A DNA stretch of 64,000 nt from a bacterium (GTDB lineage Bacteria > UBA8248 > JACPRG01 > G963555815). Shown piece by piece: positions 7,925 to 37,296 of this stretch; positions within the stretch are counted from its first letter, which is position 1, and each line of letters opens with the position of its first letter. Location: assembly GCA_965261595.1 (NCBI GenBank), contig CBDHDG010000005.1, positions 416,001 to 480,000 of the forward strand, written 5' to 3'. The notes under the pieces are model-generated. The model saw nothing but the letters and a program-made list of their open reading frames with translations. It did no database searches and had not been told where the DNA came from. Position numbers and translations under genes: made by a program.

Positions 7925-8085
7925 CGCGATTTCCTCCAGTTGGGCGGCCCGGCCATCGCCAGCCTGCGGCGCGATTGATCTTCATGTCCATTCGATTGTA
8001 ACCTGGGACCTGAATTCTGTCACATGCGGGGGGAGGGGGGCGCCGTTTCAGCCCGTCCCAGCCACATCGCATCGCTCTGGAGGGG

Positions 8086-13313: not shown

Positions 13314-15101
13314 ATGGTTTTCTCCGGCAACAGTCATCCGCCCGAGGACAATCCGCCTTCCGGAGCGCGGAAAAGAATCTTCCTCCTGGGCACGCCTTGG
13401 GGCGAGGCCCTGGTCCTGGCTTTGTTCGCCGCCGTCATCACCCTCTACGGCCTCGGCGCGACCAGTCTCATCGACAACGACGAGACGCGATTTGGTCTCC
13501 TGGCCCGGAACATGATCGAGACCGGGGACTGGGTGGTGCCCCGCTGGTCTCACCGGCCCCAGGGGACCAAACCCCCGCTCTTCATGTGGGCCGTCGCCGG
13601 GTTTTCCTTCCTCACGGGCGAGATAAATTCCTGGTCCGCGCGGGGCCCCTCGGCCCTGGCCGGGGTCGGCGTGGTCGTCCTGACGTACTTTTTGGGAAGG
13701 CGATTTTTTCCTCATCCCGTCCCGTTTCTGGCGGGATTGGTGATGAGCACCAACGTCGCCTTCTACCAAATCGCCCGGACGGCCCGCACGGACATGCTCC
13801 TTGTGTTCTTCGTCCTGTTGGCGGCGACGCTCGTCCTGGAGGGGCAGGCCCGGGGGGAGGGGGGGAGGAGAGGGGGACCTCGGGGCTATCTGCTCGTGAT
13901 GGGGGGCTACGCGGCGGCGGGTCTCGCCGTGCTGACGAAAGGCCCGGTGGGTTTTCTCCTGCCGGGCTTCATTGTTGGGGGCGTTTGGATCGCCCGGCGG
14001 GAATGGAAGCGGGCGTCCATCGCCGCCCACCTCGCGGGTCTGGCCGTGATGGTCGGCGTTGCCGGATCCTGGTACTTCCTGTTCCAAGACGCCATTGGCG
14101 GGGAGAGCGCACGGGGCTTCGTTCTTCGGGAAAACCTTTCGCGCTTTCTCAGCGCCTTCGATCACAGCGCGCCGTTTTATTACTTCGTCTACACCTTCGC
14201 GGGCGATTTCATGCCGTGGACGCCGATCTTCGTTTTGGCCCTGGCCTGGGCCTGGGTGAGGCGCAAGGCGAAAACCGCCGATTACGGCTCGGTCTTGATC
14301 TGGTTCGCGGCGGTCTTCGTTTTCTTCAGCGTTTCGTCCTCCAAGCGGGGACCCTATATCTTCGCCCTCTATCCGGCGGCCGCCATGATGACGGGGGCTT
14401 TTCTGGCGACGGCGATGGCCCCCGTGGGGAAATCCCTGGACCGGTGGCGGACGGCCGGCGTCTGGACGTTTCGGGGGCTCGGCGTCGCCGCTGTCGGTTT
14501 GGCCGTGGGTGGTTCGATCTGGACGGCCATGAGATTTCCGTCCGTTCTCATTCCCGCGATCGCGGCGGGGGTGCTTCTGTGCGTTTTCGGCGCGTGGATG
14601 TTGCGGGAGACATTCCGCGGCACGCTGGGTCGGGTCACGTTGGTGATCCCCACGGGTTTTTTGATGATCCACCTTTTGGTCCAGCCCCTGGCCGCGCCTC
14701 ACCTGGAGCGAAGGAAGTCGCCGCGGCCCTATGCGAAGGAGGTGGCCGATCTGGTCGGACGGCATCACCTGGTCTCGTACAAGTTTTCCAAGCCGTCGCT
14801 GGATTTTTACGCCCCGCCGGAGATGGGGGAGGTGTATTTCATTTATGACTGGGGCATGCTCCGATACTTTTTCCGCTATCACCAGGAACCGGTCTACGTC
14901 GTGATGAGCCGGAAGAATTATCAGGCGATTCGGCCCGAGGCCCTGGCGGGGTCTCGTCTGCTTCGAGAGAATCTCAAGTACCGAAAAGATTCCCTGGTTG
15001 TCTTGACCAACCGGCCGGTTCGCCCGGATCCCTCCGCGCGGGTGAATGGGGCGGCGCCGCCCACCCGGTCGAATCGGAAAGGCCCGGCCGGCAGGCGATG
15101 A
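13314..15101 (+). CDS. ArnT/PMT-like (GT-C) membrane glycosyltransferase
   Basis: DNDETRF...ARNMIETGDWVVP, KPPLFMW, ARTDM, LTKGPVG, SKRGPY; many TM segments. Confidence 0.88.
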   Translation: MVFSGNSHPPEDNPPSGARKRIFLLGTPWGEALVLALFAAVITLYGLGATSLIDNDETRFGLLARNMIETGDWVVPRWSHRPQGTKPPLFMWAVAGFSFLTGEINSWSARGPSALAGVGVVVLTYFLGRRFFPHPVPFLAGLVMSTNVAFYQIARTARTDMLLVFFVLLAATLVLEGQARGEGGRRGGPRGYLLVMGGYAAAGLAVLTKGPVGFLLPGFIVGGVWIARREWKRASIAAHLAGLAVMVGVAGSWYFLFQDAIGGESARGFVLRENLSRFLSAFDHSAPFYYFVYTFAGDFMPWTPIFVLALAWAWVRRKAKTADYGSVLIWFAAVFVFFSVSSSKRGPYIFALYPAAAMMTGAFLATAMAPVGKSLDRWRTAGVWTFRGLGVAAVGLAVGGSIWTAMRFPSVLIPAIAAGVLLCVFGAWMLRETFRGTLGRVTLVIPTGFLMIHLLVQPLAAPHLERRKSPRPYAKEVADLVGRHHLVSYKFSKPSLDFYAPPEMGEVYFIYDWGMLRYFFRYHQEPVYVVMSRKNYQAIRPEALAGSRLLRENLKYRKDSLVVLTNRPVRPDPSARVNGAAPPTRSNRKGPAGRR

Positions 15102-16780
15102 GAATCCAAAACGCCCCCTTTCAGGTTGTCCTGCTGATCCTCGCGGCCGGGGTGCTGTTCTTTCTCCGTCTCGACGCCAAGCGCCTGATGGACAACGAGG
15201 AGAGCCGCTTCGCCCTTCAGGCCCGGGTGATGATCGAGACCGGGGACTGGGTGGTCCCCCGGTGGTCGCAGCGGCCGCAGGGCACGAAACCCCCGCTCTT
15301 CACCTGGGCCGTCGCGGCGCTCTCCAAGGCCTCGGGCGGCGTGAGCGAGTGGACCGCCCGGCTGCCTTCCGCCGCGGCCGCCCTGGCGACGGTGCTCGTG
15401 GTCTACTTCCTCGGGGTGCGCCTGTTTGGAAGGACCGCCGGGTTCCTGGGCGCCCTGGTTCTCGCCTCCTCCTTTCTTTTCTGGGACCAGGCCCGGTTCG
15501 CCAAGTCGGACATGTTCCTGACGTGCTTTTTGACGATTTCGGTTGTTTGCCTGATCCGCGGGGCGGAGGCGGGCGCACGGTCCTCGCTCTGGCTCCTGGG
15601 GGCGTTCGCGGCGGCGGGCCTGGCCGTCTTGAGCAAGGGTCCGGTGGGGGTGGTGCTGCCGGCGTGGGTCGGATTCCTCTACCTGACCCTCCGGCGGCGC
15701 TGGGGAAGGTTTCCCCTCTGGAGTTTCGGGGCGGGTGTCCTGGTCTTTGTCGCGATCGTTTCTCCGTGGTACATCCTGTACGCCCAAACCGCCGGCGGGG
15801 AGCACATCCGGGAGATGCTTTTCCGGCAGAACGTGACCCGCTACCTCAGCGCCTTCGATCACAGGAAATCGCTTTTCTTCTATCTGGCGTATTTCCCGTC
15901 GAATTTCCTTCCCTGGATGGGGCTGACGCTGGCGGCGCTGGTGTACGGGGCGTCCCGGAGCTGGAGAAACCGGGAAGCCGGCGTGATGGTTTTCTTGTGG
16001 TGGGCCGCCATCTTCCTGTTCTTCAGTTTGTCCACCTCGAAGCGGCCCGCCTATATCCTGCCCGCCTTCCCTCCGGCCGCCCTCTTGACGGGGTTCTTTA
16101 TTCGGGCCGAGGTGCTTGGAACTCGGGGGGCGGGGCTGACCCGGAGGGATTGGGGGTGGTGGGGCGGGCTGATCCTGGGGATCACCTTTGCGGGACTCGC
16201 CGCCGGCGGGATCGGCTTCGTCCTCTGGGCGGGGATCGCCGATCCGGAGTTTCTCCCGTCTGCCCTATTGTTGGGCGGGATCTGGATCGCCTCGGGGGCC
16301 GCGGCGCTTTGGACCCAGAGGCGTGGAAGGCCCCTTCGGGCGATCGCTGTTTTCGTGTGCGGGATTCTGGCGACCCAGGGGGCGTCTCAGTGGAGCCTGG
16401 CGCCGCGAATCGACAGCCGCCTCGGGACGGCCGCCGCCGCGCGGAAGGTGGTCCGCGCCGCCGCCGGCGCGCACATCGTTTCCTTCCGGTTCCCGAAAGC
16501 CTCGCTGGCCTTCTATGGCGCCGGGAGCGGCGGGAAGAATGGGGAGGGAGAGGGAAAAGCGGGAGAGTTTTACTACTTCAGGCAGCCCTGGCGGCTGCGA
16601 TATTTCCTGAATGACTTCCAGGCGCCGGCCTTCATCCTGTTACAGACGAAAGAGTATCGGAAGCTCCCCGAGGACATCCGTTCAAAGATGACGGTGGTGG
16701 AACGGGACCTCCGGTTCGGCCGGCATCGCACGGTGCTTTTGAAGAACCGGCCCTATCGGCCGGGGGTTTCGCGGGATTGA
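15098..16780 (+). CDS. ArnT/PMT-like (GT-C) membrane glycosyltransferase, tandem paralog
   Basis: DNEESRF...MIETGDWVVP, KPPLFTW, LSKGPVG, SKRPAYILP; ATGA overlap with the upstream gene. Confidence 0.88.
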   Translation: MRIQNAPFQVVLLILAAGVLFFLRLDAKRLMDNEESRFALQARVMIETGDWVVPRWSQRPQGTKPPLFTWAVAALSKASGGVSEWTARLPSAAAALATVLVVYFLGVRLFGRTAGFLGALVLASSFLFWDQARFAKSDMFLTCFLTISVVCLIRGAEAGARSSLWLLGAFAAAGLAVLSKGPVGVVLPAWVGFLYLTLRRRWGRFPLWSFGAGVLVFVAIVSPWYILYAQTAGGEHIREMLFRQNVTRYLSAFDHRKSLFFYLAYFPSNFLPWMGLTLAALVYGASRSWRNREAGVMVFLWWAAIFLFFSLSTSKRPAYILPAFPPAALLTGFFIRAEVLGTRGAGLTRRDWGWWGGLILGITFAGLAAGGIGFVLWAGIADPEFLPSALLLGGIWIASGAAALWTQRRGRPLRAIAVFVCGILATQGASQWSLAPRIDSRLGTAAAARKVVRAAAGAHIVSFRFPKASLAFYGAGSGGKNGEGEGKAGEFYYFRQPWRLRYFLNDFQAPAFILLQTKEYRKLPEDIRSKMTVVERDLRFGRHRTVLLKNRPYRPGVSRD

Positions 16781-19386: not shown

Positions 19387-21675
19387 TTACATCTTGTTCA
19401 AGGCCCGAAGCAGCTTGTCGGGGGTGATGGGCAGGTCCATGATCCGCGCGCCCACGGCATCGTAGACGGCGTTGGCGATGGCCGAAGCCGTTGGGGCCAG
19501 CACGGCCTCGCCGATGCCCTTCGCGCCGTAGGGCCCGGCCGGGTCCGGTTTTTCGATGAACCGGTGCTCGATGGTGGGGATGTCCAGGCTGTTGGGGATC
19601 AGGTAGTCCACGAGATCCGCGTTTTTGAGAACGCCCCCGTCGTACACCATCTCTTCGAGCAGGGCGTAGCCGATCCCCTGGGTCACTCCGCCATCGACCT
19701 GTCCTCCCAGGCCCCCGGGATGCATGATCTGTCCGATGTCGTGTGAGCAGATCATCCGGAGGATCTCGATCTCTCCGGTGTCTTCGTCCACCTCCACCTC
19801 GGCGATGTGGGTCACAAAGGCGTGTGTGGGGAAGCCGTGCAGCGCGGAGCCTTCGATGTTCTCCATCGCCGGGGGCGGGGGGTTGGGGGTGTAGGCGCCC
19901 TTGCCGATGATGGGGCCTTTCATGTGAATGTTGGCCGCTTTGGCCACATCGGCGTAGCTCAGTCCGCGATCCGGCGCCGAGGCGATGAATGCCCGCTCGT
20001 CGCCGGTGTTCAAGTCCTCCACGTTGGCCTCGAGCATCTCGGCCGCGCGCACAAGCAGCTCGTTGCGCGCGTCCTCCGAGGCCAGGCGCACGGCGTGGCC
20101 CACGTTGAACGTGATTCGGCTGGCCGCCGTGATGTTTTCATACGGCGTCCCGTCGGTGTCGGCGGTGACCATTCGGATTTTCTCGTACGGGACGCCGAGG
20201 GTCTCCGCGGCGACCTGGGCCGCGATGGTGTACTCGCCGGGGCCGATCTCGATCACCCCGCTCAGGACCTGGGCCGAGCCGTCGGGCATGATCTTCACAA
20301 TCGCCGAGGACCCCATGCCGCCCGATGGATGGGAGCCGCACGCGAGCCCGATTCCCCGCTTTTTCCCGTTGGACGGCTTGGCGGCCGCCTTTCCCCAATC
20401 GACGGCCTCGGCGGCGCTTTCCAGGGTTTCCCGGAGGTTGACTTCCGGGTACCCTTGGCCGTTGACCATGGGGTCGCCGTCGCCCATGCCGTTTTTGTAT
20501 CTCAGCTCGAGGGGGTCGATGCCCAAGGTCCGGGAAAGGATGTCCATCTGGGACTCGACGGCCCAGTTCGCCTGGGGGTTGCCATATCCGCGGAACGCCC
20601 CGCTGATCGTCTTGTTGGTGTAGACCAGGCGGCCCTCGATGTTGACGTGCGGCGTTTTGTAGGGCCCCCGGGAGTGGAAGCAGGACATCGCCAGGATGGA
20701 GGGCCCGTGGTCGGCGTAGGCCCCCGTGTCCATGATCATCCGGAAGTCCCAGGCCGTCAGGGTCCCGTCCTTCTTCACGCCGGATTTGATGTCGACGATG
20801 GAGGGATGACGCTGGAAGGTCGTCTCCATGTCCTCTTCCCGGCTGAGGGTGATGCGGACCGGCTTGCGCGCCTTGTACGCCATCGCGGCGGCGTAATGCT
20901 CGACCCTCGGCTTCTTTCCGCCGAAGCCGCCCCCGACCGTCGAGCCGATGACCCGGATCCGGCTCAGCGGCATGTCGAGCAGCTTTCCGATGACCTCCTG
21001 GACCTTGAAGACAGACTGGGTGGTCAGCCAGACGGACATGCTTCCCGAGGCGTCGTATTCCGCCAGGGCCGAGTGGGTTTCGAGGTAGGCCGGGTGATGC
21101 GGGTGCGTCGTGAAGTGGTTTTCGATGATTTCATCCGCTTCTTTGAATCCAACGTCCAGGTCCCCGTGGTGGAACCGCGTTTTGCAGGCCTGGTTGCCCT
21201 GCCGATGCCTGACGTCGAAAATCGCCTTGGTCGAGCCGAAATCCTCGTGGATGATCGGCGCGTCCGGGCGAAGGGCTTCTTCGGGATCGAAGACGGCCGG
21301 CAGCTCTTCGTATTCCACCCGGATCAATTCCAGGGCCTCTTGGGCGACATCGTTGTCGATGGCCGCCACGGCGGCCACCTCGTCGCCGGTGTACCGGACT
21401 TTGTCCCGGACGAAGAGGGTCTCATCGAAGATCCACTGGCCGAAATGGATGTTGGGAAAGTCTTTCCCCGTCACGACCAGCTTCACCCCTTTGACCTTCT
21501 CGGCCTGGGAGGTGTCGATATTCAGGATTCGCGCGTGGGCGTGGGGACTTCTGAGAATCCGGCCTGTGAGGCAGCCGGGAACGGCCCGGTCGTCGGCGTA
21601 CTTGGAATCGCCGGTGACCTTCGGCTTGCTGTCGATTCGAGGCACGTTTTTGCCCAATACCGCGTATTCACTCAT
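19387..21675 (-). CDS. xanthine dehydrogenase family molybdopterin-binding subunit
   Basis: RSPHAHARI, GGGFGGK, AFRGYGNPQ, GQVDGG, GAKGIGE. Confidence 0.93.
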   Translation of the reverse strand: MSEYAVLGKNVPRIDSKPKVTGDSKYADDRAVPGCLTGRILRSPHAHARILNIDTSQAEKVKGVKLVVTGKDFPNIHFGQWIFDETLFVRDKVRYTGDEVAAVAAIDNDVAQEALELIRVEYEELPAVFDPEEALRPDAPIIHEDFGSTKAIFDVRHRQGNQACKTRFHHGDLDVGFKEADEIIENHFTTHPHHPAYLETHSALAEYDASGSMSVWLTTQSVFKVQEVIGKLLDMPLSRIRVIGSTVGGGFGGKKPRVEHYAAAMAYKARKPVRITLSREEDMETTFQRHPSIVDIKSGVKKDGTLTAWDFRMIMDTGAYADHGPSILAMSCFHSRGPYKTPHVNIEGRLVYTNKTISGAFRGYGNPQANWAVESQMDILSRTLGIDPLELRYKNGMGDGDPMVNGQGYPEVNLRETLESAAEAVDWGKAAAKPSNGKKRGIGLACGSHPSGGMGSSAIVKIMPDGSAQVLSGVIEIGPGEYTIAAQVAAETLGVPYEKIRMVTADTDGTPYENITAASRITFNVGHAVRLASEDARNELLVRAAEMLEANVEDLNTGDERAFIASAPDRGLSYADVAKAANIHMKGPIIGKGAYTPNPPPPAMENIEGSALHGFPTHAFVTHIAEVEVDEDTGEIEILRMICSHDIGQIMHPGGLGGQVDGGVTQGIGYALLEEMVYDGGVLKNADLVDYLIPNSLDIPTIEHRFIEKPDPAGPYGAKGIGEAVLAPTASAIANAVYDAVGARIMDLPITPDKLLRALNKM

Positions 21676-27252: not shown

Positions 27253-29574
27253 ATGGCAGACGCTTCAAGGGAGGAGGACCTCTCGATCGTCGGGCATAGC
27301 CCGCCCAAAGTGGACGGGAAAATTCTCCTCACCGGAGAGGCCCGGTATTCTTTCGACGTCCAGCTTCCCCGGATGCTTCACGGGAAGGTTCTGAGAAGTC
27401 CCCATCCCCACGCCCGCATCCTGAAGATCGACACCTCGAAGGCCGAGCGGCTGCCAGGGGTCAAGGCCGTGATCACGGCCGAGGACACCCCGAAAATCCC
27501 TTATCACTTCCTGGGCCCCCCTCACGAAGATAAATATCCCCTCGTCATCGACAGGGTCCGCTTTGTCGGGGACGAGGTGGCCGCGGTCGCGGCGGTGGAT
27601 GAAGACACGGCGGAAGAGGCGCTCTCCCTCATCGAGGTCGAGTATGAGCCTTTGCCCGCCGTCTTCGACCCCGCGGAGGCCGTCCAGCCGGGCGCCCCGC
27701 TGATTCACGCCGGGAAAGAAAAGAACATCGCCGCCCACGTTGTCCGGGAATCCGGCGACTGGGAGGAGGCGCTGCGGACGGCGCCCGTCGTCGTGGAGGG
27801 CCGGTTCACCACCCAGCCGGTGGCCCAGACCCCTCTGGAGACGCACGGGTGCGTGGCCCAGTATGACGCCTCGGGCCGCTATACGTTCTGGGCCTCTACG
27901 CAGGCCAGCGACCTCCTGCGGCGTGAGCTGGCGCACGCCCTCGGCGTCCCGCTCGGCCGGGTCCGGGTTGTCGAGGTCTTCATCGGCGGCGGATTCGGCG
28001 GCAAGTCGAAAGTGGGCGCCAGCGAGGCCCTGGCGGGCTTGCTCGCCAAGAAGAGCGGCCGGCCGGTTCGGCTCTTCCTCACCCGGCAGGAGGAGTTCAC
28101 GACCTCCGGCCACCGGAGCGCGCTGAGCATCCACATGTGGACCGCGGCGAAAAAGGACGGGACCCTTCTGGCGCGCCGGGCGGAGTCCTACGTCGACAAC
28201 GGGGCCTATAACAATGTGACCCCCGCCACAACGGGCGTCGGGGGAAGCATCTGCGTCTCTCTCTACCGGGTCCCGGCCGTCCGGTACGACGGCTATGTCG
28301 TCTACACGAACAAAAGCTGGGCAAATGCCTTCCGGGGGTTCGGCGGGCCCCAGCTTGTCTTCGCCGTCGAGTCCCAGATGGACCAGCTCGCCGAGGAGCT
28401 CGGGATGGACCCCCTCGCCCTTCGCGTGAAGAACTCCAACCAGCCGGGCGATGTGACGCCGGTCGGTTGGAAGATCGGCACGTGCGGGTTGCAGGAGTGC
28501 ATCGAGAAGGCGGCGGCCGAGATCGATCTGGGATGGAAGAAAACGAAGCGCCCCGAGACCGGCGCCGTCAAGCGCGGGAGGGGCCTGGCGGCGATGATCT
28601 ATACGGTGGGGGCCCGCGCCTATTGGGACGCCGACTGCGCCGGGGCATTTCTGAAGATTCACGACGACGGCTCCGCGAGCGTCATCACCGGAACGGTGGA
28701 TTGCGGCCAAGGGGCGAGGACCGTTCTGACGCAGATCGCGGCCGAGACCCTCGGGATGAAACTCGACGACGTTCGGATCTACACCATGGACACCGAGGGC
28801 GCCCCCATGGACAGCCGCGGGGCCAGCGCGTCGAGCGTGACGTTCATCTCGGGCAACGCCGTCTACTACGCCGCCCGCCAGGCTCGGGAGAGGCTCCTCA
28901 AAGTCGCGGCGGAGAAGCTCGAGGCTGACCCGGAAGACCTGGATACCCGGGAAAGCCGGGTCTTCGTGCGTTCGACACCCGAGCGGTCCATGACGCTGGG
29001 GGAGGTCGCGGAGATGTCCACGTACCGGCAGGGCGGCGAGGCCATCCTGGAGTCGGCCCACTATGACACGCCCACCGAGTTCATCGATCACATGACGGGC
29101 ACCGGAAACATCTCGCCCTGCTACTCGTTCGCGGCGCACGCCGCCGAGGTGGAGGTGGATACGGAAACCGGCCGAGTGAGGGTCGTGCGCGTCGCGGCCG
29201 CCCACGACGTGGGCCGGGCCATCAACCCCATGCTTCTGGAGGCCCAGATTCACGGCGGTCTCTCCCAGGGCCTCGGTTACGCCATCGCCGAGAACCTGTC
29301 GATTGAAGACGGACAGTTCGTGAACGGCAACCTGGCGGATTACAAGATTCTCACCTCCAAGGACATGCCGGAGATCATCCCCATCATCGTAGAGACGAGC
29401 GAGCCGGAGGGTCCCTACAACGCGAAGGGAATCGGGGAGCCCGTCCTCGTCCCGACCGCGCCGGCCGTCGCCAATGCGGTCTACGATGCCGTCGGGGTGC
29501 GGATCCACGACCTGCCGATCACCCCCGCCCGGGTCTTCGAAGCCCTCAAGCGGGCGAAAGAGAACACGTCATGA
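27253..29574 (+). CDS. xanthine dehydrogenase family Mo-binding subunit (CoxL/HcrA-like)
   Basis: RSPHPHARI, GGGFGGK, AFRGFGGPQ, AQIHGG, AKGIGEP. Confidence 0.93.
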   Translation: MADASREEDLSIVGHSPPKVDGKILLTGEARYSFDVQLPRMLHGKVLRSPHPHARILKIDTSKAERLPGVKAVITAEDTPKIPYHFLGPPHEDKYPLVIDRVRFVGDEVAAVAAVDEDTAEEALSLIEVEYEPLPAVFDPAEAVQPGAPLIHAGKEKNIAAHVVRESGDWEEALRTAPVVVEGRFTTQPVAQTPLETHGCVAQYDASGRYTFWASTQASDLLRRELAHALGVPLGRVRVVEVFIGGGFGGKSKVGASEALAGLLAKKSGRPVRLFLTRQEEFTTSGHRSALSIHMWTAAKKDGTLLARRAESYVDNGAYNNVTPATTGVGGSICVSLYRVPAVRYDGYVVYTNKSWANAFRGFGGPQLVFAVESQMDQLAEELGMDPLALRVKNSNQPGDVTPVGWKIGTCGLQECIEKAAAEIDLGWKKTKRPETGAVKRGRGLAAMIYTVGARAYWDADCAGAFLKIHDDGSASVITGTVDCGQGARTVLTQIAAETLGMKLDDVRIYTMDTEGAPMDSRGASASSVTFISGNAVYYAARQARERLLKVAAEKLEADPEDLDTRESRVFVRSTPERSMTLGEVAEMSTYRQGGEAILESAHYDTPTEFIDHMTGTGNISPCYSFAAHAAEVEVDTETGRVRVVRVAAAHDVGRAINPMLLEAQIHGGLSQGLGYAIAENLSIEDGQFVNGNLADYKILTSKDMPEIIPIIVETSEPEGPYNAKGIGEPVLVPTAPAVANAVYDAVGVRIHDLPITPARVFEALKRAKENTS

Positions 29575-30446: not shown

Positions 30447-30931
30447 TGGAGGGGAAAGTCGATCACACGATCCGGTTGACGGTCAACGGCGAAGCCGTCG
30501 AGGAGACGGTCAAGTCCTCCGAGCTGCTGGTCGAGGTCATCCGGCGCCGTCTCGAGCTGACCGGAACCAAGCGGGGCTGCGAGAGCGGCGTCTGCGGGGT
30601 CTGCACGGTTGTTTGCGACGGCGCCGCCGTCAAGTCCTGTCTCCGGTTCGCGTTTCTGGTGGACGGCGCGGAGATCTTGACCGTGGAGGGGCTGGCCGAG
30701 GGAGAGGACCTTCACCCGATCCAGCAGGCGTTTTTGGAGAAGACGGGCATGCAGTGCGGCTTCTGTACGCCCGGCATGCTGATGACCGCCGTGGCCTTCC
30801 TGGCCGAGAACCCCGACCCCACGGAGGAGGAGATCCGCGACGCCCTCGTGGGGAACCTCTGCCGCTGCACCGGTTACGTCAACATCATCGCCTCGGTCCA
30901 TGCGGCCGCCGAGGCGCTTCGGTCGGGATAA
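30446..30931 (+). CDS. 2x[2Fe-2S] subunit (CoxS/XdhC-like)
   Basis: [33 protein letters not shown]. Confidence 0.95.
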
Positions 30932-31110
30932 GGGCCTGGGGGGGGCCACACGTCTTCCAACCCGAAATTCTCACACGTATCGCGGGCGGTTATTACATTT
31001 CAACAAACTCGGAAAATGCCGGGTCTCCCCCGATAGGGCTCATGTTTCAGGGGGTGCGCCACGGAGAGCGCGTCCGCCCGGGCCTCCGCTGAATTCAGGA
31101 AATCATCTAA

Positions 31111-31150
31111 GGCGGCGCTGGCGGGCAAGCCGCCGGCGCCGCCCCTTGTT
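31111..31150 (+). terminator. GC-rich hairpin, likely terminator
   Basis: GGCGGCGCTGGCGG-GCAAG-CCGCCGGCGCCGCC followed by ccttgttt. Confidence 0.5.
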
Positions 31151-31511
31151 TGAGATTTTACGGGCCGGGGCCTGTCCCGATCTGGGTCGAAGGGATCGGC
31201 ATAAAAGGGGGGGAGAGATCTTCGGGAATATTTCTCGTCCAGTTGTCGTTATCTTATAAATGGTCAGTTAATCATGCTCTGACCGCCGCATTTCAATGGT
31301 TGGTTCATCTGGACGGGACGATCGTCTGGTGACCGACGCAAACCGGTCTTGTATTCGACAGGAGGGTTTCATGACTCACGAACCGGTAAGAACCCCTTGG
31401 GGGGTCCGGCGCGGGATTGCCGCGGTAATCCTCGTGATTATGCCCTTGACGCAGTGATACACTATATGTAGATCCCTCCCTTACATCGGCTGACCACAAG
31501 ATATAGGGGCG

Positions 31512-31541
31512 TTGACAATCCAGCCTTTTCCGACATAAACT
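31512..31541 (+). promoter_or_regulatory. sigma-70-like promoter for the methyltransferase
   Basis: TTGACA-N18-TAAACT immediately inside the left repeat. Confidence 0.5.
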
Positions 31542-32161
31542 TAACTTTCCTTGCCTAACAACAAATCGGACCACATGAGACCACATTCTACAGAATCGAG
31601 TCAGCGTACACGAACCCTTTATTATGGCGACAATTTGCCTGTCTTGAAAGACATGCCGGATGACTCCGTTGACCTGATCTATCTGGACCCGCCATTCAAT
31701 TCAAAAAAATCGTACAACATAATCTACCCTGACGATCTCGGACAGGTTCAGGCTTTCGAAGATACTTGGATATGGACGCCAGAATGCGACTCCTTGCTGG
31801 ATGAATTGGGAAGGGACGCTGATCTGTTCGGTCATCGTCGCGCTGTTCATCTTTTGGATAGCTTGGTTGAAGGTTTGGGCAAGACTAAGCAAATGTCCGC
31901 CTATCTCGTAAATATGTCGGCTAGGCTCATTGAAATGTATCGGCTGCTCAAACCCACTGGTTCGATCTATCTTCATTGCGACCCTACCGCTTCTCATTAT
32001 CTCAAGATCATGATGGACGCGATTTTCGGGGGTGAGAATTTCAGGAATGAGATCGTTTGGAAACGCTACGGTGCACACAATGATGTAGGTCAGGGTCCCC
32101 CGCTCTAGGGTTTTGTTGGACACTCGATTGATCCATGATTCATGGAGAAAGGGGTGTCGCG

Positions 32162-32548
32162 ATGAACGAACAAAAGCAAGAGGGGGCTTTGGCGGAGGGC
32201 GCCCGCAGGGCGAACGGAGCCAAGGCCCCAGGGCATCGCAGTGAGCGGGGTCGGTTCTCCTGCCAGCGCAAGCGGGAGGCGGTCCTGCGTCTTTTGCGGG
32301 GCGAGAGCCTGGAGACGCTCTGCCGCGAGTTGGGCACGACAGCGGCTCGGCTTTCCGCCTGGCGCGAGGCGTTCCTTCGCGGGGGCGAGGCGGCGCTCAA
32401 AGCCCGCCCGGCGGATGAGCGGGCCGAGGAGAACGCCCGGCTCAAGGCCAAGGTGGGCGAACTCACGATGGAGGGCGAGGTCCTGCGGGAGAAGATCGAC
32501 CGCCTGGAGGCCGGCCGCCCTTTAGCCGGCAGGAGGTGGAGGCGATGA
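32162..32548 (+). CDS. IS3 OrfA (HTH plus leucine zipper)
   Basis: RKREAVLRLLRGE...WREAF...LKAKVGELTME. Confidence 0.88.
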   Translation: MNEQKQEGALAEGARRANGAKAPGHRSERGRFSCQRKREAVLRLLRGESLETLCRELGTTAARLSAWREAFLRGGEAALKARPADERAEENARLKAKVGELTMEGEVLREKIDRLEAGRPLAGRRWRR

Positions 32549-33453
32549 GTCAGGCCCGCTTCACCTCCACGGGCAGAGCCTACGGCCTGAAGCGGGTGTG
32601 CGCCCTTTGGGGCTTGGCGCGCTCCACGGTCTACGCGCAACGGCGGCGAGAGGCGGTCCCCGTTCATGAACGCCCCACGCCCAATAAGCGCGGCCCTGTG
32701 GGCCCGTGCACCGATGCGGAACTCCTCGGCCACATCCGGCAGGTCCTGGAGGACTCTCCCTTCCATGGCGAGGGCTACCGCAAGGTGTGGGCGAGGCTGC
32801 GCTTCGCGGGCATCCGCACCAGCAAGGAGCGGGTGCGTCGCCTGATGCGGGAGGCGGGGCTTCAGGCCCCCCACCGGGTGGGCAAACCCCGAGGTCCCAA
32901 GGCCCACAACGGGACCATCCGCACCGAGCGGCCCGACCGAATGTGGGGCACGGACATGACGACGACGGTGACCACCGAGGAGGGGATGGCCTCGGTGTTC
33001 GTGGCGGTGGATCACTGCTCGGTGGACTGCGTGGGGATCCATGCGGCCAAGAGCGGCAACCGCTTCGAGGCCCTGGAGCCGATCCGGCAGGGGGTCGCCG
33101 AGCGCTTCGCCGGCTTGGAGGCGGATGTCGCCGAGGGGCTTAAAGTTCGTCACGACCACGGCCCCGCCTATCTGTCCGATGACTTTCAGCGGGAGATCGC
33201 CTACCTGGGCATGACCAGTTCGCCCAGCTTCGTGCGGGCGCCCGAGGGAAATGGCTACTGTGAGTGGTTTATCCGCATCTTGAAGGAGAATCTCCTGTGG
33301 GTGCGCTCTTTCGCCACCGTAGAGGAACTGCGGTGGGCGCTGCTTGAGTTCAAGAACCTGTACAACCATCATTGGATTCTCGAGGGCTACGGCTACCGAA
33401 CGCCGGCCCAGGCAAGGCAGGAAAAACTCGCTCAAGTTGCGGAGGCCGCATGA
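32545..33453 (+). CDS. IS3 OrfB DDE integrase-like transposase
   Basis: GYRKVWARL, WGTDMT, RHDHG, PEGNGYCE...LKE; ATGA overlap with orfA. Confidence 0.9.
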   Translation: MSQARFTSTGRAYGLKRVCALWGLARSTVYAQRRREAVPVHERPTPNKRGPVGPCTDAELLGHIRQVLEDSPFHGEGYRKVWARLRFAGIRTSKERVRRLMREAGLQAPHRVGKPRGPKAHNGTIRTERPDRMWGTDMTTTVTTEEGMASVFVAVDHCSVDCVGIHAAKSGNRFEALEPIRQGVAERFAGLEADVAEGLKVRHDHGPAYLSDDFQREIAYLGMTSSPSFVRAPEGNGYCEWFIRILKENLLWVRSFATVEELRWALLEFKNLYNHHWILEGYGYRTPAQARQEKLAQVAEAA

Positions 33454-35014
33454 GGTCGAATACCCTCACCCGAGTGTCCAATAACCCAGGGGCGGTCCAA
33501 GGGATCGCGACACTTTGGGCGAATTCATGATACGTTGTTGCTATATAGCAACGGAGAAAAACCAATATGGAACCAGATTTTCACGCCGCTTGATCCGCAA
33601 TATGTAGAAAAAACATACAGATACATAGAGGAAGATACAGGGAGACGCTTCACCACAACGCCACTAACCGGGCCCGGTGGTGAAGCGAAGGGTAACCCTA
33701 TCTATGAATGGAACGGACACACAAGAGCATGGAGGTACGGACGGGAGACGATGGAAAAGCTCGATAACGAGAAGCGTCTGTATTATTCCAAAACCGGCTA
33801 TCCAAGAAGGAAATTTTACCTTGAGGAGTCCCGTGGCATACCGGTTCAAGATATATGGAGCGACATAAGCTCTCTTTCCGGTGCCCATAAGGAACGTTTA
33901 GGATACCCTACCCAAAAACCCCTGGCACTCCTACAGCGCATCATCAAGGCATCGTCCAATCCGGGAGACCTAGTGCTTGATCCCTTCTGCGGATGCGGCA
34001 CTTCCATTGCGGCCGCTGAAATTATGAATAGAAAGTGGATTGGGATCGATATCACCTATTCCGCCATCGCTGCGATTCAGGAACGATTCAAGCGTCAGAA
34101 ACTCAATATATGGAATGACATTGAAGTCCTAAACATCCCAAAAACGACTGACGAGGTTGTCAAAAGATTACTGAGTGCAAAAGTCTCATCTACTTATGCT
34201 CGAAAAGAGTTTGAGAAATTTTGCGTCACCACGATCAACGGACTCCCGAATGGCAGAATGGGAGCCGATGGAGGGATCGATGGGCGTATTCCCCTTGTAG
34301 CCAAAAACCAGGCCATCGTTTCGGTTAAAAGTGGTCATGTGGGGGTGGAGCATGTTCGAGCGTTGAAGGGTTTGTTGGATGAGAAACAGATAGCGGGAGT
34401 TTTCATATCTCGACATAGCCCAACGAAACCGATGAAAGACTTCGCAGACACATCCGGCCTTTGCCGCATTCAAAGGAATGGTCTGTTTGACGTGTCCCCG
34501 TTTCCAAAAATGCAAATATTGACGCTCGAAGAAATACTACGGGGGAAGCTCCCTGAAGTGCCCTACGCGAACGCCGCCTAGGCGTCGCCCTATATATTGT
34601 GGTTAGCCCATGTGAGGGCGTGATCTATATGTTGTGGTCGTCTGCGTCAAGGGCATAATCACTCCGTTCCGTTCTTCGGCTGTGCGGCGCTTTCATCCAA
34701 GCCGATTCAGGACTTCAAGGCCGTCGCGGGGAAATGGGAGGGAAATCTAACACGTCAGGCTGCCCAGTACGGCACGACGACAGGCGCGGCCACTTGGTTG
34801 ATCAATGAGGACGGTACATTTGAGATGATTACGGGAAAGTGGCGGGCCAAGGGGACAATGAGAATCCAGGACGGAAAGATTGTCTATTCCGATGGCCCGC
34901 TGGCAAGCGGCATCGCATCCTTGCATGTAGGATCGGGCGGAAGGATATCGTACAGCACGGGCGACGCACCCGGCACCTTTGGGGCCTGGTCGCCCGCAAA
35001 GTAGACAGAGAATC

Positions 35015-35140
35015 AATGGGGTCAGACACGACTTTCACGCAACCCGTGTGCGGGTCGGGAGGGTAAGGCAGCCGCGCGCCTATCCGGGGCCCGGTTGTCG
35101 TTATGATGCGGGCCGCGATTGAATCGAGTCTGACCCCATT
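35015..35140. repeat. inverted repeat pair (REP/MITE-like)
   Basis: AATGGGGTCAGACACGACT (35015) against the reverse complement of 35122-35140, AATGGGGTCAGACTCGATT: 17/19 identical. Confidence 0.75.
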
Positions 35141-35145
35141 TTCTC

Positions 35146-35404
35146 AATCCACAGATTTCAGAGGATCTTCGGTTTTTTAAAATCTGTGTAATCTGCGAAT
35201 TCATAAGCCTTTAAAAAGACCCTGGAAATATCCAAAAATTTCGCAGATTACGCAGATAATTCCTGTGTTACAAAACCTTCAAATCTACCCAACCTGTGGA
35301 TTGATTAGTATTTGAAACGACATTGGAACCTTCCACTGAGTTCGCAGATCGCACAAATACTTCTTATTCTTTCAAATCTGTGCCATCTGTGTAATCTGTG
35401 GATT
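35146..35404. repeat. three palindromic units built from (C/G)CAGAT / ATCTG(T/C)G 9-mer repeats
   Basis: Units at about 35146-35201, 35238-35302 and 35341-35404, e.g. cgcagattacgcagat and atctgtgtaatctgtgg. Confidence 0.75.
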
Positions 35405-35418
35405 CATCGGCCTCTAAA

Positions 35419-37296
35419 TCAGTTGCCGGGCTTCTTGGCCTTGACCTTGAGCTTCCGTCCGAATGGATGGACTTCCCCGGGGCCGTGTCCGACGGGGAAC
35501 TTCTTCTTGGCCAGCCTCTTCCGGAGCGCCCGGGTCGCCTTGATGTCCACTTCGTATTCCAGCGCCTCGGGATCCCCCACCTTGATCGCCACGCCGTAGA
35601 TCTTTCGCGCGACCTCCAGGGAGATGAGCTCGTTCATCACGTCGTCCAGGACGAGCTGGGGGTCCCGTTTTCTCGGGTCGCCGAAACCTCCGCCGCCGTT
35701 GCTCCGAAAGTTGATCACGTCGCCGGGGCCGATCGGGACGCTCGCGGCGTGCATCCCCAGGCGGCGCTCCCGTTTGGTTCCCTCGTTGAGGGTCAGGGCG
35801 TTGGGCCCGCCGTTCAGTCCGCCGGACAGGCCGTAAGGGGTGACCTCCTCCCGGTCACCGTGGATGGTGATGACCCCCTCTCCCCACATCCGGTAGTGCC
35901 GCTGGAAGCCGAGACCGCCCCGGAACTTGCCGTGGCCGCAGGAGTCGGGGAGGACTTCGGCCTTGAGATAGGTGTACGGATACCAGCGCTCCAGGACTTC
36001 GACCGGCTGGTTGCAGGCCCCGCCGGCGAACATCATCATCATATAGCTGGGTCCGTCCCGGTCGACGCGCGCGCCCTGGCCCCCCTCCATCCAGTTGTAG
36101 GAGACGAACTGGTTCCCCGACCTCGGGTGCTTGCCGCCGCAGACGCAGTTCTCGAGATTTACCGTTCCGGCGTGAATCTGCGTCGGGTCCACCTGGGCCA
36201 AGGGCTGCGCCCAGCAGGCCATGACCGCGGCGTCCACCTTTTCATACGTCCCCGCGCAATACCCGGCCATGGGCGATGGGGGCAGGATGTGGACGGTGCT
36301 CCCCGGTATGCTCAGCAGCTCGATGGACCGGGTGATGCCGTTGTTGAGCGGGGTGAGGTGGGGGAAGCAATGAAGCGTGCCGTCGAACGCCGCCGAGATC
36401 AGCCCCGGATGCGTCAGGCCCGTGGGTCCCCTGGGCGCCGGATCGCTCTTCCGGAAGTCGAGGGAGGCCTGGTCCCCCCGGATGGTGAGGACACAGTGGA
36501 TCTTGACCCTGGGGTGGTCGGGATGCCCCTCGTCCATGTCGGAGTAGTCCGTGAATTCATACCTCCCGTCGGGCAGGCGGGAGACCTCGTGGCGGAGGAG
36601 CCGCTCGCCGTGGTTCATGGATTCCTCGAATGCCCGCGTGACGGTCTTGGCGCCGTACTTCTCCGCGTACTCCTGGATTCGCATCTCCATGACCTTCACG
36701 GCCTGGTACTGGGCCGCGAGGTCGCCCATGCGGTCGTGCGGGACGCGCACGTTCCAGCGGATCAGGTCGAAGCTCGACTTGACGGGCCGGTCCTGGTCGT
36801 AGAGCTTCATGGTGGGGACCAGGAGCCCCTCGGCGTGCACCTCGCGGGCGTTGGGGTTGAACGTCCCGGGAACAGGTCCGCCTATGTCGGTCCAGTGGCA
36901 GTTGGCGATGGTGAAGGCGATGTGCTCGCCCCGGTGGAAGACCGGCCGCACGAGGCGGACGTCCTGGGTGTGGGTCCCGCCCCGGTAGGGGTTGTTGAAC
37001 ATGTAGACGTCCCCCGGCCGGAAATCCTCTTCCACGTCCTCGATGATGCTCTGAACCGTCCCTTCGAAGGTCCCGAAGTGAGGGGTGTGGTCCCGGGTTC
37101 CGTGGGCGACGAGCCGGCCGTCGGCCGTCAACATGGAGACCGAGAAATCACGGCCCTCGGTGATGGCCGGGGCGTAGGCGATGCGCTCGATCATCGCGCT
37201 GCCCTGGGTGCAGAGGTCGCGAAACGCGCTGCGAAGCACCTCGAAGGTGATGCGGTCCATCTCGGGGAGGGGGGTTTTCTTTTTCGACTTGGCCAT
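35419..37296 (-). CDS. hydantoinase B / oxoprolinase family protein
   Basis: DRITFEV, EGRDFS, NNPYRGGTHTQD, HWTDIGG, NQPVEVLE, GGGGFGDP. Confidence 0.92.
   Translation of the reverse strand: MAKSKKKTPLPEMDRITFEVLRSAFRDLCTQGSAMIERIAYAPAITEGRDFSVSMLTADGRLVAHGTRDHTPHFGTFEGTVQSIIEDVEEDFRPGDVYMFNNPYRGGTHTQDVRLVRPVFHRGEHIAFTIANCHWTDIGGPVPGTFNPNAREVHAEGLLVPTMKLYDQDRPVKSSFDLIRWNVRVPHDRMGDLAAQYQAVKVMEMRIQEYAEKYGAKTVTRAFEESMNHGERLLRHEVSRLPDGRYEFTDYSDMDEGHPDHPRVKIHCVLTIRGDQASLDFRKSDPAPRGPTGLTHPGLISAAFDGTLHCFPHLTPLNNGITRSIELLSIPGSTVHILPPSPMAGYCAGTYEKVDAAVMACWAQPLAQVDPTQIHAGTVNLENCVCGGKHPRSGNQFVSYNWMEGGQGARVDRDGPSYMMMMFAGGACNQPVEVLERWYPYTYLKAEVLPDSCGHGKFRGGLGFQRHYRMWGEGVITIHGDREEVTPYGLSGGLNGGPNALTLNEGTKRERRLGMHAASVPIGPGDVINFRSNGGGGFGDPRKRDPQLVLDDVMNELISLEVARKIYGVAIKVGDPEALEYEVDIKATRALRKRLAKKKFPVGHGPGEVHPFGRKLKVKAKKPGN

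Follow-up and report, generated by a model that had tools for sequence, protein, structure and literature searches.

A foreign inverted-repeat cassette that lacks a transposase of its own and carries a DNA methyltransferase gene within a bacterial lipoprotein gene

How does a single DNA methyltransferase gene with no transposase of its own come to lie inside a lipoprotein gene to which it is foreign? The question is raised by a 64 kb stretch of bacterial DNA (assembly GCA_965261595.1, contig CBDHDG010000005.1, positions 416,001 to 480,000; GTDB lineage UBA8248, JACPRG01), which is called the window in this study and is numbered from its first letter. A 3229 bp element at 31434-34662 splits the signal-peptide region of the lipoprotein gene. 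It consists of two inverted-repeat arms that bracket one methyltransferase gene, and that gene has in turn been interrupted by an insertion sequence (IS) of the IS3 family. The evidence supports horizontal acquisition of a cassette that is foreign to its host, with the IS entering afterwards. As to how the cassette moved, we lean towards mobilisation in trans by a transposase encoded elsewhere. The borders of the unit and the two parts of the interrupted gene are as follows.

31371-31433, plus strand: 5' part of the lipoprotein gene; 21 codons with a signal-peptide start, matching the N-terminus of the related proteins P0121-P0124.
31434-31508, no strand: left inverted-repeat arm; its outer 21 nt (31434-31454) are identical to those of the right arm.
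31512-31541, plus strand: promoter-like site with 10 of 12 consensus matches; such sites are no more numerous here than in shuffled sequence.
34588-34662, no strand: right inverted-repeat arm; the 7-mer ACCACAA occurs in it twice, 35 nt apart.
34663-35004, plus strand: 3' part of the lipoprotein gene; 113 codons and a stop, 99% identical to P0121, with a weak likeness to the lipocalin-like family DUF4923 (expectation value E = 0.0028, below the cut-off).

That a foreign unit was inserted into the lipoprotein gene follows from empty alleles in relatives, a contrast in base composition and a tight repeat-gene-repeat layout. A protein search with the lipoprotein gave six candidates, five of which were significant: four close relatives and one protein, 50% identical, from a metagenome-assembled genome (MAG) of the Nitrospinota. 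The close relatives have uninterrupted N-termini and are 99% (P0121, 136 aa), 91% (P0122), 80% (P0123) and, over the aligned part, 88% (P0124) identical, and the empty allele that the initial annotation of this locus had proposed to look for is present at the protein level in all four. The guanine-plus-cytosine (GC) content of the cassette without the IS is 0.478 compared to 0.658 and 0.636 in the 5 kb flanks, which bears out the earlier description of a single gene richer in A and T than its surroundings. This low-GC DNA starts and stops exactly at the arms, and the host reading frame picks up directly outside them. The arms also nearly abut the gene, since the left arm ends at 31508 with the start codon at 31575, and the stop codon is at 34581 with the right arm beginning at 34588. 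The weak promoter-like site lies a few bases inward of the left arm and ahead of the methylase start, in a region where two such sites were counted against a shuffle mean of 2.0. The reverse history, in which the relatives lost the unit rather than this genome gaining it, is ruled out because the unit splits a signal peptide, has a foreign GC content and is absent from alleles down to 80% identity.

Between the arms there is a single passenger gene, and the only transposase is that of the nested IS, which has ends of its own. The unit therefore has the make-up of a mobile insertion cassette, that is, terminal inverted repeats that bracket a passenger gene without its own transposase. No integrase or recombinase gene was found in or beside the cassette, either among the open reading frames (ORFs) or by a family profile search, and the neighbours are ordinary metabolic genes. 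One of them, a hydantoinase B gene beside the lipoprotein gene, encodes a protein 96% identical to that of a Nitrospinota MAG, which assigns the host to this group. No relevant RNA family of the Rfam type was found in 30900-35600, where one sub-threshold viral motif falls inside the IS.

The two arms are 75 nt long and 81% complementary with identical tips of 21 nt, and when aligned their likeness extends about 78 nt inward from each tip and then ends. This agrees well with the imperfect inverted repeats of about 80 bp, perfect over the outer 21 bp, that had been reported. The window was searched for further arms with a 21-mer scan that allowed up to 3 mismatches and with short-word blastn of the whole arm. 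The scan found the tip at two sites only, whereas at least two matches occurred in none of 100 shuffled sequences, and blastn gave no further arm copy in the window. A motif of about 14 nt is repeated within each arm, with the outer copy of the left arm being degenerate, and each ACCACAA of the right arm sits inside one of these repeats. These inner motif repeats resemble sites at which a protein would bind. The ends had also been described as structured. However, each end folded alone as single-stranded DNA was no more stable than its shuffles (z = 0.92, -0.13, 0.13 and -0.43), so the arms repeat one another and do not form hairpin ends.

Two known kinds of ends were considered and rejected. 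An element of the IS200/IS605 type makes no duplication and has hairpin ends, but this was ruled out as there are no sub-terminal hairpins beyond the shuffle level. Ends of the IS1 or IS1595 kind, of which IS1595 had been named in the initial annotation, did not stand either: the alignment with IS1A of E. coli K-12 was unconvincing, blastn gave no match in 5,426 E. coli genomes, and there is no duplication of 8-9 bp.

The nested IS accounts for most of the difference between the 3229 bp element and the unit that originally arrived. Its features are listed here.

32092-32095, no strand: left AGGG target duplication, paired with 33500-33503.
32096-33499, plus strand: IS3-family element with orfA at 32162-32548 and orfB at 32536-33453.
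33500-33503, no strand: right AGGG target duplication, paired with 32092-32095.

The IS is 1404 bp long with a 4-bp duplication and imperfect terminal repeats, and its two overlapping frames match the Pfam families HTH_Tnp_1, HTH_21 and the rve core. With the transpos_IS3 profile, a model that spans the fused orfAB, orfB scored 157.7 bits against a cut-off of 160 and orfA scored 41.1 bits. Its DNA shares 65-68% identity with IS3-family transposase genes annotated on plasmids of Alphaproteobacteria. An orfA/orfB pair with rve, a duplication of 3-4 bp and terminal repeats are the marks of the IS3 family, and all of them are present. The nested IS is like other elements of that family in its overlapping frames, rve core, 4-bp duplication and imperfect ends; its ends are unrelated to the outer arms, and it had no role in moving the outer cassette. 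Subtraction of the IS and one copy of the duplicate leaves 1821 bp, and the methylase gene without the IS and one AGGG forms an uninterrupted frame of 1599 nt and 532 codons, as had been stated for both the unit and the reconstructed protein. Across the repaired join the protein agrees with its homologues P0005 and P0008. The intact 4-bp duplication, the frame regained on removal of the IS and the host-like GC content of the IS (0.667) mean that the cassette was inserted first and the IS second, and that the methylase is now inactive.

The cargo itself has three recognisable parts.

31575-32095, plus strand: N-terminal part of the methyltransferase; PF01555 with E = 2e-15, DPPF motif.
33504-34581, plus strand: C-terminal part of the methyltransferase including the stop; PF01555 with E = 7.5e-28, frame open across the repaired join.
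34147-34578, plus strand: Mrr-like restriction-endonuclease-fold domain; Mrr_cat match at 34255-34461, fold model, invariant D, D and K.

The two gene parts matched PF01555 (N6_N4 methylase) with 57.8 and 98.4 bits against a cut-off of 26.7. The DPPF motif and the FxGxG motif that binds S-adenosylmethionine stand in the order of the beta class and are invariant or almost so among homologues, which places the enzyme in that class. The last third of the gene matched Mrr_cat with 26.5 bits (E = 7.2e-6) against a cut-off of 21, and NA-iREase1, a family labelled 'inactive', with 25.9 against a cut-off of 27. PADLOC and NCBIfam gave only generic type II/III and orphan methylase models. The family is huge, with 7998 of 8000 scored candidates significant, and among the best 120 of these 7998 most are about 545 aa long with the same Pfam set. 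Residues were counted in the 111 homologues of at least 480 aa within that best 120, with the window's own protein excluded. In all 111 the residues D255, D259 and K275 of the motif GxDxGxDG ... xVKxG are invariant, while the position ahead of V-K is occupied by Q in 91 homologues, by S in 18 (as in the window) and by E in 2.

An AlphaFold model of the methylase made with 45 aligned sequences has a mean predicted local distance difference test (pLDDT) of 75.8, and values of 87-96 over most of the last 100 residues. Compared with the PDB, the methylase part of the model resembled EcoP15I Mod, M.BceJIV and RsrI, with CcrM also among the relatives, and the C-terminal domain resembled MspJI (4f0p_A, probability 1.00, root-mean-square deviation 3.9 over 158 columns), EcoO109I and NucS/EndoMS. 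The model thus supports a predicted PD-(D/E)XK fold for the C-terminal domain.

The genomic setting of relatives indicates what such a protein might do. The methylase matched 2423 plasmid records and 519 phage records, of which 7 and 28, respectively, had at least 80% coverage, and these relatives are annotated as DNA methylases. Phage and plasmid methylases with N6_N4 and Mrr-like domains (Streptomyces phage Dwayne gene 48, Mycobacterium phage Mask gene 42 and one on a Microbacterium amylolyticum plasmid) have a like domain order and a length of about 545 aa, and are 34-42% identical to the cargo over 95-99% of its C-terminal 365 aa. On the Cellulosimicrobium cellulans plasmid pTL2A, a gene annotated 'restriction endonuclease' (821-1768) lies directly upstream of the methylase, which suggests that the family can pair with a separate nuclease gene and that the nuclease-like domain may not perform restriction. 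In the other relatives inspected the methylase stands alone, adjoining integrase, relaxase or toxin-antitoxin genes. A separate restriction gene beside one relative and a lone methylase in the others lead us to read the cargo as a solitary methylase. Most likely it is a solitary beta-class N6/N4 methylase with a nuclease-fold accessory domain, of the kind found on phages and plasmids, rather than a proven one-gene restriction system. The initial annotation had favoured a single-gene restriction-modification (RM) or defence module. The nuclease fold on which that idea drew was recovered, but the idea as a whole is weakened by these relatives.

A flanking-repeat survey covered 8 of the 35 plasmid and phage records with at least 80% coverage. 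Repeats like the present arms were found around the methylase in none of the 8; the longest bracketing pair was 25 nt at 72% and the best-matching was 17 nt at 88%, sizes that often arise by chance. In this respect the phage and plasmid methylases, which have no long flanking inverted repeats, are unlike the present cassette, and the repeats therefore belong to the cassette and not to the methylase family.

The junction with the lipoprotein gene departs from its earlier description. The insertion had been called clean, and its deletion was said to rejoin the gene exactly in frame. The frame is indeed kept when 31433 is joined to 34663, but two codons are missing and an Ala has become Ser with respect to all four close relatives. 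These read ...LLAAVPF(F/L)GC... where the joined window reads ...L|SVPFFGC, that is, LLAAV compared to LSV; in a longer view, the empty-site lipoprotein reads AAVILLAAVPFFGC in 4 of 4 close relatives and AAVIL|SVPFFGC in the window. The comparison was made at the protein level only (P0121-P0124), so the exact lost nucleotides are deduced from codons, and on this count about 6-8 target bases appear to have been lost. Just outside the tips the only bases common to both sides are the dinucleotide TC, a match expected 1 in 16 by chance, which accords with the earlier view that there is no convincing target-site duplication. Counting TC as a 2-bp duplication would give an empty site that does not keep the reading frame and falls 8 bases short of the allele deduced from the relatives. 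If no duplication is assumed, six target bases were lost and one was changed. Target bases are lost under either reading of TC, and hence the insertion was not clean. One further feature adjoins the insertion point.

31414-31431, no strand: 18-nt near-palindrome (16 of 18) in the target coding sequence, ending 2 nt before the insertion point.

This near-palindrome could be a coincidence or a feature of the target.

Other observations were made on the same gene and its surroundings. In P0124 the same lipoprotein gene is interrupted elsewhere, after about residue 87. The tail of P0124 has a weak likeness (E = 6e-5) to pieces of the orfB of the window's IS3-family element, with a short peptide repeated at both ends, and looks like a deleted IS derivative. 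The lipoprotein gene seems to be dispensable and repeatedly hit, as far as these sequences tell. Past the gene there is a low-GC spacer (about 0.45; 35015-35140 and 35182-35418) with a 32-nt inverted pair (75%) whose arms are 62 nt apart. The same spacer contains a 34-nt motif three times with spacings of 101-102 nt and 65-85% identity, and it has no Rfam match.

Units of this general kind were described in 2010, and mobile insertion cassettes even before that. According to Furuta, Abe and Kobayashi 2010 (PMC2853133), screening for flanking repeats found transposon-like units of RM genes or orphan methylases with long imperfect inverted repeats, each unique in its genome and without transposase or integrase, and such units cover all RM types as well as orphan methylases. 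Two of their cases have an empty site and an 8-bp duplication: the X. oryzae unit, with repeats identical at 60 of 65 positions and unique in the genome, and the N. gonorrhoeae unit, with repeats identical at 26 of 26 (PMC2853133). Those authors presented the units as a novel compact mobile form and left undecided whether RM proteins or a trans-acting transposase move them (PMC2853133). The present cassette is like these units in its compactness, the lack of a transposase, the long imperfect repeats and the empty site in a relative, whereas its cargo, a methylase fused to a nuclease-fold domain, sets it apart (PMC2853133). Mobile insertion cassettes have been defined in much the same way, with two inverted repeats, no transposase nearby and a duplication usually observed; the qnrD and qnrS2 cassettes are examples, and the qnrD cassette has a 2-bp duplication (PMC3913671). 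The likeness extends to paired repeats, passenger genes with their own promoter or, here, promoter-like site, the lack of a transposase and a proposed mobilisation in trans, and the difference is that such cassettes usually have a duplication while the present one has at most the 2-bp TC together with target loss (PMC3913671). The suggestion that the long ends and the apparent lack of a duplication mark an undescribed element type therefore does not hold against these two sources (PMC2853133, PMC3913671).

No paper placing this methylase family inside such cassettes was found in the open-access literature. The cassette belongs to an already described kind, from which it is set apart by its junction and by the lack of a known partner. 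MIC231 of Bacillus cereus, by comparison, has the partner IS231, since the ends of MIC231 reportedly match those of IS231, whose transposase is said to move it; no partner IS is known for the present cassette.

The reading that we hold to be somewhat more probable than not is that of a non-autonomous cassette mobilised in trans by a transposase encoded elsewhere. It is favoured because the joints coincide exactly with the identical 21-nt tips and because the inner motif repeats are like protein-binding sites. Under this reading, a transposase encoded elsewhere would recognise the 21-nt tips and move the cassette, as is proposed for mobile insertion cassettes. The insertion itself, its borders, the order of the two events and the gene families are established: the cassette landed in the signal-peptide region of an apparently dispensable Nitrospinota lipoprotein gene and destroyed that gene, and a host-type IS3-family element later entered the methylase gene with a 4-bp duplication and inactivated the methylase. 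With movement in trans, the lack of a duplication and the roughly 6-8 lost bases would reflect either an unusual joining event or a small alteration that arose afterwards at one of the joints. The initial annotation had also proposed a cargo cassette mobilised in trans. The foreign, transposase-less unit in a lipoprotein gene has proved to be real; for the proposed step in trans, no second copy or partner was found.

Several results weigh against mobilisation in trans. The junction shows TC in place of a target-site duplication together with a net loss of two codons, and a missing duplication with lost target bases is not predicted by classical DDE transposition. Both empty-site cases among the RM units of the 2010 paper have an 8-bp duplication, compared to at most 2 bp here with about 6-8 bases missing (PMC2853133). 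The search for other copies of the repeats, which had been put forward as a check, was also negative. No second copy or partner transposase was found in the window, in species-representative genomes, on plasmids, in phages or in E. coli genomes. The genome scan used the exact 21-nt tip against one genome per species (185,579 species, 596 Gb, the window's own genome evidently not being among them), for which we estimate about 0.3 chance matches on both strands, and the arms were further searched against plasmids, phages and the 5,426 E. coli genomes. The scan gave one match, in a Chitinophagaceae MAG, and this was dismissed as chance because the site (8001-8021) lies in an unrelated ORF of 182 aa, a second arm was not found within 8 kb even with 3 mismatches allowed, and the likeness ends with the 21 nt. 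The arms gave one 32-nt match at E = 0.4 on plasmids, matches at E of about 9 in phages and nothing in the E. coli genomes. A spurious frame of 51 aa over the left arm, searched against 1.84 billion representative proteins, revealed no cassette copy; P0246 (2722 aa), whose 37% identity spans about 29 residues in 3 stretches, was rejected as one. Likewise, the closest methylase other than the cargo itself is about 55-57% identical among 5.8 billion clustered proteins, the nearest group (P0002-P0012) ranging over 54-57%, and the single 100% match is the window's own fragment.

Other explanations have to be weighed against the same observations. Capture by end joining, in which a linear fragment with inverted-repeat ends (an excised transposon or incoming foreign DNA) was sealed into a break within the lipoprotein gene and no transposition into the site took place, is unlikely but would account for much of the junction. 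It would lose about 6-8 target bases and make no duplication, it would leave room for the one base at the right joint that fits neither the relatives' protein nor the repeat, and it suits an element that is a singleton. However, each joint lies precisely where the identical 21-nt tips end, a placement that random breakage would rarely produce unless the fragment was a precisely excised transposon. Another explanation is that the arms are not transposition ends at all but remnants of some larger element that was rearranged, or sequences with a regulatory or structural role, with the unit having come within something else. This would agree with the failure to find a second copy, a duplication or a partner, yet we regard it as improbable given that foreign low-GC DNA starts and stops exactly at the arms and the host frame resumes right outside.

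Site-specific recombination by a serine or tyrosine recombinase encoded elsewhere, with TC as the crossover core, is quite improbable. TC does stand directly outside both tips, elements driven by recombinases make no duplication, and the 18-nt near-palindrome adjoins the insertion site. Against this, a second, earlier deletion would be needed, since an empty site with a single TC would not keep the frame and would fall 8 bases short of the allele deduced from the relatives; there is no recombinase gene in or beside the unit, and a match of 2 bp is expected 1 in 16. We think it very improbable that the unit is self-mobilising, with the PD-(D/E)XK domain of the methylase cutting target and ends and acting as a transposase or homing enzyme. 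The idea draws on the sole protein encoded between the arms, which has a well-modelled nuclease fold with D, D and K invariant in 111 of the 111 homologues listed, and a break made by a nuclease could explain the target loss. Comparable flanking repeats are nevertheless present in none of the 8 plasmid and phage relatives and so are not a trait of the family, although these relatives are only 34-42% identical and represent 8 of 35 records. Very little credence is given to the broader proposal of a whole class of inverted-repeat elements, this cassette among them, whose integration makes no duplication and removes a few target bases, with the cutting done by the restriction-enzyme-fold domain of the methylase.

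The window contains other repeats apart from the cassette, whose arms rank third by length among the inverted pairs of a whole-window repeat scan. The two longer inverted pairs have arms about 6-10 kb apart, 19419-19545 with 29401-29527 (127 nt, 80%) and 21444-21557 with 27389-27502 (114 nt, 73%). The arms 29401-29527 and 27389-27502 are inside the ORF 27253-29574, and their partners 19419-19545 and 21444-21557 are taken to lie in an opposite-strand paralogue, a putative oxidoreductase. Direct repeats of 169 nt and 66 nt (76-77%) at 13452-13965 and 15170-15662, separated by about 1.7 kb, are suggestive of paralogous genes in tandem.

The data presented in this study single out the junction, which lacks a duplication and has lost a few bases of the target, as the sole departure from published cases. 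Were other copies to show this type of junction, an unusual chemistry of joining would be indicated, though a single copy cannot carry that weight. Cutting by the nuclease domain of the methylase, if true, would answer the question raised in 2010 of whether RM gene products can act as a transposase. The cassette provides a natural example of a solitary methylase gene moving between distant bacteria as a minimal repeat-bounded unit, and it also shows a host genome silencing such a methylase gene with an insertion sequence of its own.

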